Positions 41,901-44,900 of a stretch of 64,000 nt of DNA are shown here, piece by piece (position 1 is the first letter of the stretch; each line of letters opens with the position of its first letter). Made by a program: the position numbers. Source of the DNA: Escherichia coli (GTDB lineage Bacteria; Pseudomonadota; Gammaproteobacteria; Enterobacterales; Enterobacteriaceae); NCBI RefSeq assembly GCF_045037415.1, contig NZ_CP173438.1; one strand, given 5' to 3'.

Positions 41901-44900
41901 GCAGCTGGCAAACATCGCGCGCGGTGGTTATGTGCTGAAAGACTGTGCTGGTCAGCCGGAACTGATCTTCATCGCGACCGGTTCTGAAGTTGAACTGGCT
42001 GTAGCGGCATACGAAAAATTGACTGCCGAAGGCGTGAAAGCGCGCGTGGTTTCCATGCCGTCTACCGACGCATTCGACAAGCAGGACGCGGCTTACCGTG
42101 AATCCGTACTGCCGAAAGCGGTTACCGCTCGTGTTGCGGTGGAAGCTGGCATTGCTGACTACTGGTACAAGTATGTTGGCCTGAACGGTGCTATCGTCGG
42201 CATGACCACCTTCGGTGAATCTGCTCCGGCAGAGCAGCTGTTTGAAGAGTTCGGCTTCACCGTTGACAACGTTGTTGCGAAAGCAAAAGCGCTGCTGTAA
42301 TCGGTAAGATGCTTTGTGAGAAGGGCCGCAAATGCGGCCCTTCAGATTGTTGGCAAAGTGCGCGTTGTTTATGCCGGATGCGGCGTGAACGCCTTATCCG
42401 TCCTACAAGATTTTGCAAATTCAACATATTGCAGCCTGATAAGCGTAGCGCATCAGGCAGTTTTGTCTTTGCTATCAGTCTCAAGGGCCGCGAAAGCGGC
42501 CTTTTTTTACTTAGTAGAGATAAACGGAACTGTGCTGCCGGGGATCATGGTATCGGGCAGTTTACCGTCCCAACGCTCAGCAGTGGTGAGGGCAACAAGT
42601 CCGGGATTCTCCCGCAGAGCTTCACCGCGCAGGCGGATAGCTTCTGCTTCAGCCGCACTTTTTAAACGAATAGTTTCAGCCTCTGCCGCGCCTCTTACGC
42701 GAATGGTCTCAGCTTCTGCTTTGGCTGCCGCCAGTTTACTGTCTGCTTCTGCCTGGGCCTGAGTTACTGCTATTTGCGCTTGGATTTTCTCTGTTTCCAG
42801 ATTTTGCTTACGTGTGGCAATGGCGACTTCTGCTTTCATTCGGTCTTCAATCGACTTTTCATAAGCGTCAGAAAAATCAATATTTTCAATCTGGACACCA
42901 TCAATCACCACCGGGCCAACAACGGCTTTACGCATTGCATTTTGCAGATCCTGAACCAGTTTTGTACGATCCTGTACCGCGCTGATGGCGGTATATTGGC
43001 CGAAAACGTTCTCCAGTTGAGTTGGCAACTGACGGACAATCAGACGATCTTTTAATGCTTCAATGGTGTTGTAGGTGGTATAAACCGCGCCTGCTTCTGA
43101 AGGTTTAATGTGGAAGCTGACTGATACCGTCATTTGTGCCGGTTGCTGGTCGCGGCTGTAGGCCTGTAATCCCTGATAGACCACAGCCTGATTACGCGTG
43201 GAAATTTTCTCTACACTTTCCATAAAAGGGATCTTAAAACCCAGCCCCGGCTCGGCAACTTTTACGATTTTTCCGTAGCGCAGCAAAATGCCGCGTTCAC
43301 CTTCATTAACGGTGTAATACGAGAGAAATGGCAGCACAACCACGGCAAGCACGCCAATGGCGATAGCAATAGATTTTTGTGGGCGAAATGAGGTTATTGA
43401 AACAGGTGCTTTCATATGAATCTTCCTTGAGTAAAGTATGGGAATATGTCACATGGGGGGAGGAGAAAACAGCTGGCAGGTGAGAATTCAGAATCTATAA
43501 AGGGGTATAGCGAAAAAACATTGCATTAGAAAAGTATGCTTTCGGACATTCAATAAATAAATAGAGATATGCATCACAAATACAATAACAAACAAAATAT
43601 TTATTTTGTGATAAACATAACAAATACAAAATTGACTTTAAAAATATCAATTTCATGTTGTTGTTATTTAAAGTTTTATTATTTTTACTCATGAGGTTTT
43701 TCTTCTCGCGTGCCCAATTGCTTTCATTAAACTGCACGAGTATTTTATTTTTACCGCCGGACGGTACCCTAAAAATAAAATAAGGATAATTTATGCGGCT
43801 TATTGATTATTTTCCAGAATCATCAATCTCAGTTATACATTCAGCAAAAGACTGGCAGGAAGCTATCGATTTCTCGATGGCATCATTGCTGGATAAAAAC
43901 TATATCAGCGAGAATTACATTCAATCTATTAAAGACTCCACCATCAGCAATGGTCCTTATTATATTCTCGCACCAGGCGTGGCAATGCCTCATGCGCGAC
44001 CGGAATGTGGGGCGCTTAAAACCGGGATGTCTTTGACGTTACTTAAACAAGGCGTTTATTTCCCGGGGAAGGACGAACCGATTAAATTACTCATCGGGCT
44101 TTCTGCTGCCGATGCCAATTCGCACATTGGCGCTATTCAGGCGTTAAGTGAATTACTGTGCGAAGAAGAAATACTCGAACAACTCTTAACAGCATCATCA
44201 GAAAAACAATTAGCGGACATTATCAGCCGCGGATAATTACTCTCTCCTCTACAGGATAATATTATGGAAAACAAGTCTGCTCGTGCAAAGGTCCAGGCTT
44301 TTGGGGGCTTTTTGACTGCAATGGTCATCCCCAATATCGGTGCTTTTATTGCCTGGGGATTTATAACGGCATTATTTATTCCCACCGGCTGGCTGCCGAA
44401 TGAACATTTCGCCAAAATTGTTGGTCCGATGATTACCTATTTATTGCCCGTGATGATTGGTTCTACCGGTGGTCATCTGGTCGGCGGTAAACGCGGCGCG
44501 GTCATGGGCGGAATTGGTACGATTGGTGTGATCGTCGGCGCTGAAATCCCGATGTTCCTTGGCTCGATGATTATGGGGCCGCTCGGTGGTCTGGTGATTA
44601 AATATATCGACAAGTCGCTGGAAAAACGCATACCTGCTGGTTTTGAGATGGTTATCAATAACTTCTCATTAGGTATCGCGGGGATGCTCTTTTGTCTGCT
44701 GGGTTTTGAAGTTATCGGTCCGGCGGTGTTAATTGCTAATACTTTCGTCAAAGAGTGTATTGAGGCGCTGGTACATGCGGGTTATCTGCCTTTGCTGTCA
44801 GTCATCAATGAACCGGCGAAAGTGCTTTTCCTTAATAATGCGATTGATCAGGGCGTCTATTATCCGCTGGGAATGCAACAGGCTTCGGTTAACGGTAAAT

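Follow-up and report, generated by a model that had tools for sequence, protein, structure and literature searches.

Studies of SPFH scaffold proteins in Escherichia coli use strain K-12, where the number of these proteins is put at four (HflK, HflC, QmcA and YqiK); hflKC is a K-12 gene, HflK/C are predicted to face the periplasm, and for QmcA and YqiK the opposite orientation is predicted (PMC10434171). HflC and HflK, which form an FtsH-modulating cage (PDB entries 7VHP, 7WI3 and 9CZ1), are encoded by a gene pair in the hfq-hflX-hflK-hflC operon and build a hetero-oligomer. The genes of the other two proteins are co-transcribed with genes of the NfeD family, making up the pairs QmcA-YbbJ and YqiK-YqiJ. 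According to Hinderhofer et al. 2009 (PMC2636767), NfeD partners exist only for the subfamilies SPFH1 (stomatin-like), SPFH2 (flotillin-like) and SPFH5, while HflK/C (SPFH3), p-prohibitins (SPFH4) and SPFH6-12 have none. Here we describe an SPFH gene in a 64-kb stretch of E. coli DNA (contig NZ_CP173438.1; the whole stretch is called the window below), located on the minus strand between tkt (40309-42300, plus strand) and cmtB (43793-44236, plus strand), in a part of the window that is 100% identical to O25b:H4-ST131 (sequence type 131) genomes. The product of this gene is probably a stand-alone SPFH protein of the HflC/HflK/prohibitin branch, ancestral at tkt and lost in the branch leading to K-12, that would form a homo-oligomeric cage in the periplasm.

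The open reading frame (ORF) starts with ATG, has a length of 909 bp and is preceded by a Shine-Dalgarno-like AAGGAAG at 43422-43428, as read from the sequence (coordinates of all features are given in Table 1). Its 302-aa product matches the Pfam Band_7 profile (PF01145) in residues 35-210 with E=5.6e-32, the match covering model positions 2-176 of 176. The AlphaFold2 model of the protein, a monomer built from 51 homologues with a mean predicted local distance difference test score (pLDDT) of 82.8, has a transmembrane (TM) helix at residues 12-32, an alpha/beta SPFH core (33-181), an 87-residue helix (183-269) and then a disordered tail. In a Foldseek comparison with the PDB we observed matches to HflC, prohibitins 1 and 2, erlins 1 and 2, HflK, stomatin, QmcA and flotillin, with E-values from 1e-17 to 1e-9. 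The model and these matches agree with the layout of the SPFH superfamily, in which a membrane anchor comes first, then the alpha/beta core of the SPFH domain and, towards the C-terminus, a long coiled-coil helix. All this, along with a reading of the repeats, bears out what an earlier note, made from the sequence alone, had described here: a 302-aa SPFH/band-7 protein with one N-terminal TM helix and three tandem 11-residue repeats. The pLDDT of the C-terminal tail is <50 in the monomer, and the tail residues W282, G284, L286, P287, P292 and P297 are invariant in the 51 homologues; we infer that the tail is an oligomerisation or cap segment.

The place of the protein within the superfamily was assessed with a profile of its family. 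Searched against PDB sequences, the profile scored highest with HflC (75 bits, E=4.8e-20), followed by HflK (51 bits, E of ~1e-12), prohibitin and PHB2 (45 and 44 bits; E-values for prohibitins of 6e-11 and 1e-10), QmcA (33 bits) and stomatin (30 bits). Similarity to prohibitins is above that to stomatin and QmcA, yet the similarity to HflC is higher still, and the profile scores leave the boundary between SPFH3 and SPFH4 blurred. The protein is not an orthologue of HflK or HflC, because it scores well below the NCBIfam equivalog cut-offs (60.5 versus 134.4 bits for TIGR01932, hflC; 37.4 versus 159.4 bits for TIGR01933, hflK) and has no paired paralogue. Judged by these profiles, it is a stand-alone member of the HflC/HflK/prohibitin branch.

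HflC and HflK are the best matches by sequence, profile and fold; they share with the protein an N-terminal signal-anchor, the SPFH domain, the long helix, a C-terminal tail, the predicted periplasmic orientation and the lack of an NfeD partner. Unlike the hflK-hflC pair, however, the protein is encoded by a single gene; identity to HflC and HflK is only ~22%, and the long N-terminal extension of HflK is absent. With the p-prohibitins the protein has in common a length of ~300 aa, a monocistronic gene, the lack of NfeD, a predicted orientation towards the periplasm (or the intermembrane space) and the RefSeq name ‘prohibitin family protein’. It differs from prohibitins in scoring higher with HflC; also, eukaryotic PHB1 and PHB2 form hetero-oligomers, whereas there is one gene here.

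One could think of a cytoplasm-facing scaffold of stomatin or flotillin type, using YbbJ or YqiJ in trans. Both of these NfeD proteins are encoded by all E. coli, and the SPFH fold, the membrane anchor and the cage-forming architecture are shared with QmcA and YqiK (for QmcA, PDB 8Z5G, Foldseek E=3.5e-12). Still, the profile scores of QmcA and stomatin fall well below those of HflC, HflK and prohibitin, the FloT model gave 17.8 bits against a cut-off of 700, and QmcA and YqiK are much less similar in sequence; the charge distribution described below predicts an N-in/C-out protein, as predicted for HflK/C and not for QmcA and YqiK (PMC10434171). Such a scaffold is thus distinctly unlikely.

The earlier note had also pointed to the lack of an NfeD gene and had treated it as an anomaly. 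The lack itself is real: tblastn with E. coli YbbJ and YqiJ as queries found no NfeD-like gene in the window, and no YbbJ/YqiJ-like gene within 6 kb of the SPFH gene in 80 loci from 17 genera (in both searches very remote NfeD forms could escape these two queries). The anomaly is not, since the state without NfeD is the rule reported for HflK/C and p-prohibitins (PMC2636767), and a missing partner is therefore what one expects in a clade of HflC/HflK/prohibitin type. No match to a characterised SPFH protein with a partner encoded nearby was found, and a second SPFH gene was seen neither in the window nor beside any of the 80 homologues. When neighbouring ORFs of the 80 loci were clustered, no family appeared in more than two genera if the SPFH gene and the ORFs that overlap with it are left aside. 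The gene is a genuine singleton and is monocistronic.

Orientation in the membrane can be predicted from the charge of the segments flanking the TM helix. The net charge is about +2.5 before the helix versus about 0 in the 15 residues that follow the helix, and the charge before exceeds the charge after in 96% of 108 homologues; two of these 108 have, in place of a plain TM helix, a lipobox. From the charge bias and the lipobox cases, the protein is therefore predicted to be N-in/C-out: the short positive N-terminus would stay in the cytoplasm, and the SPFH domain would face the periplasm as in HflK/C. To our knowledge, all relatives with a solved structure form rings or cages. Since this is so, and since the tail is conserved yet disordered in the monomer, a homo-oligomeric cage is to be expected; copies of the protein would come together in such a ring or cage at the inner membrane, on its periplasmic side. 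The cage may fence off a membrane patch with a client in it, which might be FtsH (its periplasmic part) or a different membrane protease or complex. Judging from HflK/C and mitochondrial prohibitins, FtsH would be the first candidate client, a choice that we make with low confidence.

We found the coding sequence (CDS) in 1830 of 5426 complete E. coli genomes, about one third, with at least 80% of the CDS present in 1818; in all carriers inspected it occupies the tkt-cmtB locus. Among named strains the gene is present in SMS-3-5, ST131, the avian pathogenic APEC O2-211 and others, including named human and poultry isolates, and absent from K-12 MG1655, O157:H7, several Shiga toxin-producing E. 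coli (STEC) strains and 042. We take the strains lacking the gene to belong to phylogroups A (K-12), E (O157), B1 (STEC) and D (042), and those carrying it to F and B2. MG1655 has no SPFH gene at this locus, just a 313-bp spacer between tktA and cmtB, so the absence from K-12 that the earlier note had suggested is correct.

The same note called the gene ‘inserted’ between tktA and cmtB, and here the comparison with other genomes points the other way. The position between tkt and cmtB is the same as in the window in E. albertii, E. whittamii and Escherichia sp. MOD1-EC7003 (cryptic clade). Orthologues with 82-87% amino acid identity occupy equivalent positions in other genera, being convergent to tkt in Kluyvera and Pseudocitrobacter: the gene order in Kluyvera intermedia is epd-pgk-fbaA, the SPFH gene, tkt and loiP, the Pseudocitrobacter gene adjoins tkt and loiP, and in a Klebsiella-type contig the SPFH gene adjoins epd. 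In K-12 and 042 the 1219-bp segment 42301-43519 is replaced by 40 bp carrying a different tktA terminator hairpin, and the short 313-bp spacer is 99.7% identical between the two strains. No integrase gene, tRNA, flanking direct repeats or scars of mobile elements were observed at this 1219-bp/40-bp indel.

The simplest history suggested by these comparisons is that the gene was ancestral at tkt, older than the cmt block, and was lost in one E. coli branch. The SPFH gene would already have stood at tkt when the cmtBA-yggP-yggF-fumE-yggC block, which is specific to Escherichia, came in between it and epd; the loss, by a 1.2-kb deletion or replacement, would have happened on the branch that led to K-12 (A), O157 (E), B1 STEC and 042 (D). 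Horizontal acquisition, in which the gene of an atypical SPFH protein whose NfeD partner was lost or never existed would have entered B2-type strains between tktA and cmtB, would also produce the absence from K-12, O157 and 042; the occurrence of the family on plasmids and in phages, and the GC content of the CDS (48.8%, compared with 56.4% for tkt), could be read in its favour. But the GC content is close to the window mean of 50.2%, an NfeD partner is not expected for this clade, and the location beside tkt and/or epd recurs outside Escherichia, in three genera, and in no fewer than three further Escherichia species. The lack of mobile-element marks at the indel and the pattern of divergence considered next also speak against an insertion, and we regard it as unlikely.

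Synonymous divergence (dS) of the gene is 0.09-0.16 between E. coli alleles and 0.25-0.36 when these are compared with other Escherichia, with a ratio of non-synonymous to synonymous divergence (dN/dS) of 0.009-0.057. These values indicate strong purifying selection among the Escherichia alleles, and the pattern fits vertical descent of a functional gene. They also bear on the possibility that the gene is decaying or no longer functional and is heading for the loss already seen in K-12. It is true that about two thirds of E. coli genomes have lost the gene, that truncations, frameshifts and nearby IS1 insertions occur occasionally, and that deletion of nine SPFH genes of Pseudomonas aeruginosa gave almost no phenotype (PMC13086221). 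With the 909-bp ORF intact in 59 of 60 sampled carriers, at least 80% of the CDS present in 1818 of the 1830 carriers, dN/dS of 0.01-0.06 and a good Shine-Dalgarno sequence and terminator, though, a remnant is highly improbable.

The family is large, mobile and not confined to the enterobacteria listed above. Among 8000 candidates scored, 3669 clusters matched at E<=1e-10. The family matches PHROG_200 (E=6.6e-63), and homologues were observed in 288 phage records, including jumbo phages with ~50% identity, as well as in 84 plasmid records (34 conjugative); members are carried by Pseudomonas plasmids of pCAR1 type and by Enterobacter plasmids. The SPFH proteins of phages and plasmids (for example GAP32_025, the ‘band 7 protein’ of phage Skarpretter and the genes of pCAR1 type) have 44-59% identity to the E. 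coli protein over residues ~30-302 and the same order of TM helix, SPFH domain, long helix and tail; they differ in having two 11-residue units versus three in E. coli and in being carried by mobile elements. In a Salmonella enterica contig of IncFII type (IncFII_repA; locus L103, 3982-10885) a 64%-identical member is located directly upstream of a VirB-type type IV secretion system operon, between a NusG-like gene and the SLT-TrbC-VirB3-VirB4 operon. The PHROG label ‘lipoprotein’ carries no weight here: the three phage homologues aligned have plain TM helices and no lipobox cysteine.

Such observations raise the question of a function typical of mobile elements and kept on the chromosome, such as superinfection exclusion, phage defence or support of a conjugation or secretion machine. 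The strong PHROG match, the phage records and the homologue next to the secretion operon on an IncFII-type contig, with the conjugative plasmids, would agree with it. The chromosomal gene, though, is stable in its syntenic position, has housekeeping genes around it and neither a defence island nor a prophage beside it, and shows strong purifying selection and slow, vertical-like divergence. No family of PADLOC-DB v2 matched at E<=0.01, which speaks against an anti-phage defence gene. Altogether, a retained mobile-element function seems improbable. As to chromosomal relatives in Pseudomonas, PaFlo8 of P. aeruginosa lies in the rtc locus and PaFlo9 beside ppiB-lpxH (PMC13086221). The closest Pseudomonas locus among those compared, from P. 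nitritireducens (L025, 4296-10571), has the homologue directly after a fecI-fecR-type pair of extracytoplasmic function (ECF) sigma and anti-sigma factors; the ORF on the other side of the homologue, of 1236 aa, matched nothing in NCBIfam. Neither context expected for PaFlo8 or PaFlo9 was found there, and none of the nine P. aeruginosa SPFH genes could be linked to the family.

The C-terminal part of the long helix contains the three Ala/Glu-rich repeats, AEAETIRVRGA, AEAETIRLKSA and AEAEAIRLRGE, preceded by a weaker fourth unit, AEADSKLAAAK. Units 1 and 2 have 25 of 33 nucleotides in common, and the duplication is therefore old. Three units are present in E. coli, Shigella and E. albertii, and two in all aligned homologues outside Escherichia (among them Klebsiella, Kluyvera, Kosakonia, Mixta, Erwinia, Pseudomonas, the Salmonella plasmid and phage proteins); the duplicated unit also occurs in E. 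whittamii and in the MOD1 clade, where the CDS is likewise 909 bp long. The alignments thus indicate that three repeats are an old, Escherichia-specific state. The earlier note had suggested looking at whether the repeat number varies between strains: the CDS spans 909 bp in 59 of 60 E. coli genomes sampled evenly across the ranking, hence the repeat number is fixed in E. coli and is not hypervariable. Unit-sized changes are nevertheless seen, as in one E. albertii protein (P0013, 280 aa) in which exactly two 11-residue blocks are missing.

Rare variants of other kinds also occur (among proteins P0015, P0005 and P0006). One has a frameshift following two units; in the SPFH core, a Shigella variant carries an insertion of 7 residues, QQPATSN, and an E. 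albertii variant a duplication of 3 residues, QGL.

Eleven residues correspond to about three helical turns, or ~16 A, and the extra unit of Escherichia would lengthen each helix of the cage equally, with phase and register kept. It is possible, though we put it forward tentatively, that phylogroups B2 (including ST131) and F, E. coli lineages rich in pathogens, and the other Escherichia species keep, alongside HflK/C, a second periplasm-facing, homo-oligomeric, prohibitin-like cage with a stalk longer by one 11-residue unit and with a client of its own, either FtsH or a different envelope protein.

Several points weigh against the proposed periplasmic cage with an ancestral origin at tkt. We infer the orientation, the oligomeric state and the client, and a model of a monomer cannot show a cage. 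Carriers of the gene presumably also hold HflK/C, which is at odds with the report of Hinderhofer et al. that p-prohibitins and HflK/C are seldom found together in the same genome. Members of the family on plasmids and in phages mean that an earlier horizontal acquisition is possible. The phylogroup pattern reflects a handful of named strains and not all 5426 genomes. No consensus sigma-70 promoter was detected in a scan of 42250-43850. Literature searches for an experimental paper on any family member, or for a paper on the SPFH gene or its locus, found none. A proteomics supplement on blood cultures of extraintestinal pathogenic E. coli had no match by name (band 7, SPFH, prohibitin, stomatin, HflC), an uninformative result, as the naming perhaps differs.

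Table 1. Features of the SPFH locus between tkt and cmtB (positions in the window)
Feature	Coordinates	Strand	Basis
SPFH CDS, 302 aa, RefSeq WP_000646924.1 ‘prohibitin family protein’	42507..43415	minus	ORF list; Pfam; RefSeq annotation in an identical genome; dN/dS
N-terminal transmembrane signal-anchor helix, residues 12-32, predicted N-in/C-out	43320..43382	minus	AlphaFold2 helix; charge bias
SPFH/Band_7 domain, residues 35-210	42786..43313	minus	Pfam match; top Foldseek matches HflC, prohibitin and erlin, E down to 1e-17
Single long alpha-helix, residues 183-269, putative coiled-coil wall/roof element of SPFH cages	42609..42869	minus	AlphaFold2; aligned with helical regions of HflC/HflK
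Three tandem 11-residue (33-bp) Ala/Glu-rich units, residues 233-265	42621..42719	minus	Sequence; alignments
Conserved C-terminal tail, residues 277-302, AERWDGKLPxTMIPGxxVPF	42510..42587	minus	Residue conservation; low monomer pLDDT
Segment of 1219 bp replaced by 40 bp in K-12 and 042	42301..43519		Allele alignment
tkt-SPFH spacer, one REP/BIME-type unit between two near-identical GC-rich hairpins	42301..42506		Repeat matches; hairpin search; Rfam
SPFH 5' leader/promoter region, specific to carriers, Shine-Dalgarno AAGGAAG	43416..43519	minus	Absent from K-12
AT-rich cmtB upstream region shared with K-12	43520..43792		Local alignment to K-12 spacer; composition

The non-coding DNA on both sides of the gene was compared among strains as well. 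The spacer between tkt and the SPFH gene holds a unit of REP/BIME type (repetitive extragenic palindrome/bacterial interspersed mosaic element). The hairpins around it, at ~42318-42345 and 42483-42504, have the sequence GGGCCGC[A/G]AA[T/A]GCGGCC; the second adjoins the end of the SPFH gene and is terminator-like, and the two serve as convergent terminators for tkt and the SPFH gene. Bases 25-192 of the query match dozens of places per genome (median of 28). Depending on the strain, the unit of hairpin and REP is present in 0, 1 or 2 copies, making the spacer 45, 206-218 or 393 bp long, a variation that is as expected from recombination between the hairpins. Rfam gave matches below threshold to REP-related families (naRNA4, ES036) in this spacer and nothing in the AT-rich region on the other side of the gene.

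That AT-rich region, reported earlier as ~370 bp long and as a part of what was new here, is indeed low in GC (30.5% in 43416-43792, with a core of 22.9%); as a novelty it did not hold up, since 43520-43792 has a homologous sequence in K-12. In a local alignment this part corresponds to positions 41-313 of the 313-bp K-12 spacer; over the final 85 bp ahead of cmtB the two are nearly identical, and the distal part is roughly 60% identical by eye. Thus, the alignment indicates that most of the AT-rich tract (~270 bp) is the cmtB upstream region common to all E. coli. Carriers differ in having segment 43416-43519 as the only part of their own, in which the leader of the SPFH gene and at least a part of its promoter must lie.

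The distal part of the shared region, 43520-43707, also differs among carrier alleles. A weak candidate promoter, TTGAAT-17-TCTAAT, was noticed by eye ~100 nt upstream of the gene on the minus strand. At 43607-43622 there is a CRP-like half-palindrome, TGTGATAAACATAACA, a candidate by its sequence. An 80-aa ORF at 43495-43737 was judged to be a chance ORF in low-GC DNA. In some otherwise identical ST131-type genomes (NZ_CM138820.1, NZ_CP135664.1) an IS1 element is inserted within the equivalent of 42301-43792. Farther away, beyond yggC (from ~49119 onward; L001, 12819-13492, and L009, 1-305), the ST131-type genome and E. albertii have genes for ATP-binding proteins of ABC transporters; in K-12 and 042 epd is directly beside yggC, a second presence/absence difference in the neighbourhood.

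The missing NfeD, the AT-rich upstream DNA, the repeats and the absence from K-12 are each explained by ordinary biology, and we saw no sign of a new kind of system. The gene is already annotated in RefSeq (‘prohibitin family protein’) and, judging by its conservation, is real and functional; an experimental characterisation was not found. It encodes a fifth E. coli SPFH protein and the sole prohibitin-like one specified by a single gene, which makes it of note to the field of bacterial SPFH scaffolds and ‘lipid rafts’. For annotation, the correction is that the difference between strains reflects a loss in K-12, not a pathogen-specific gain. The protein is a candidate for a simple model of a homo-oligomeric bacterial prohibitin cage, and the natural coiled coils with two and three units would offer a direct test of whether the length of the helix sets the size of the cage. 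If a second cage does exist in the lineages that keep the gene, it could account for differences between lineages in membrane-protein quality control or in tolerance of envelope stress.

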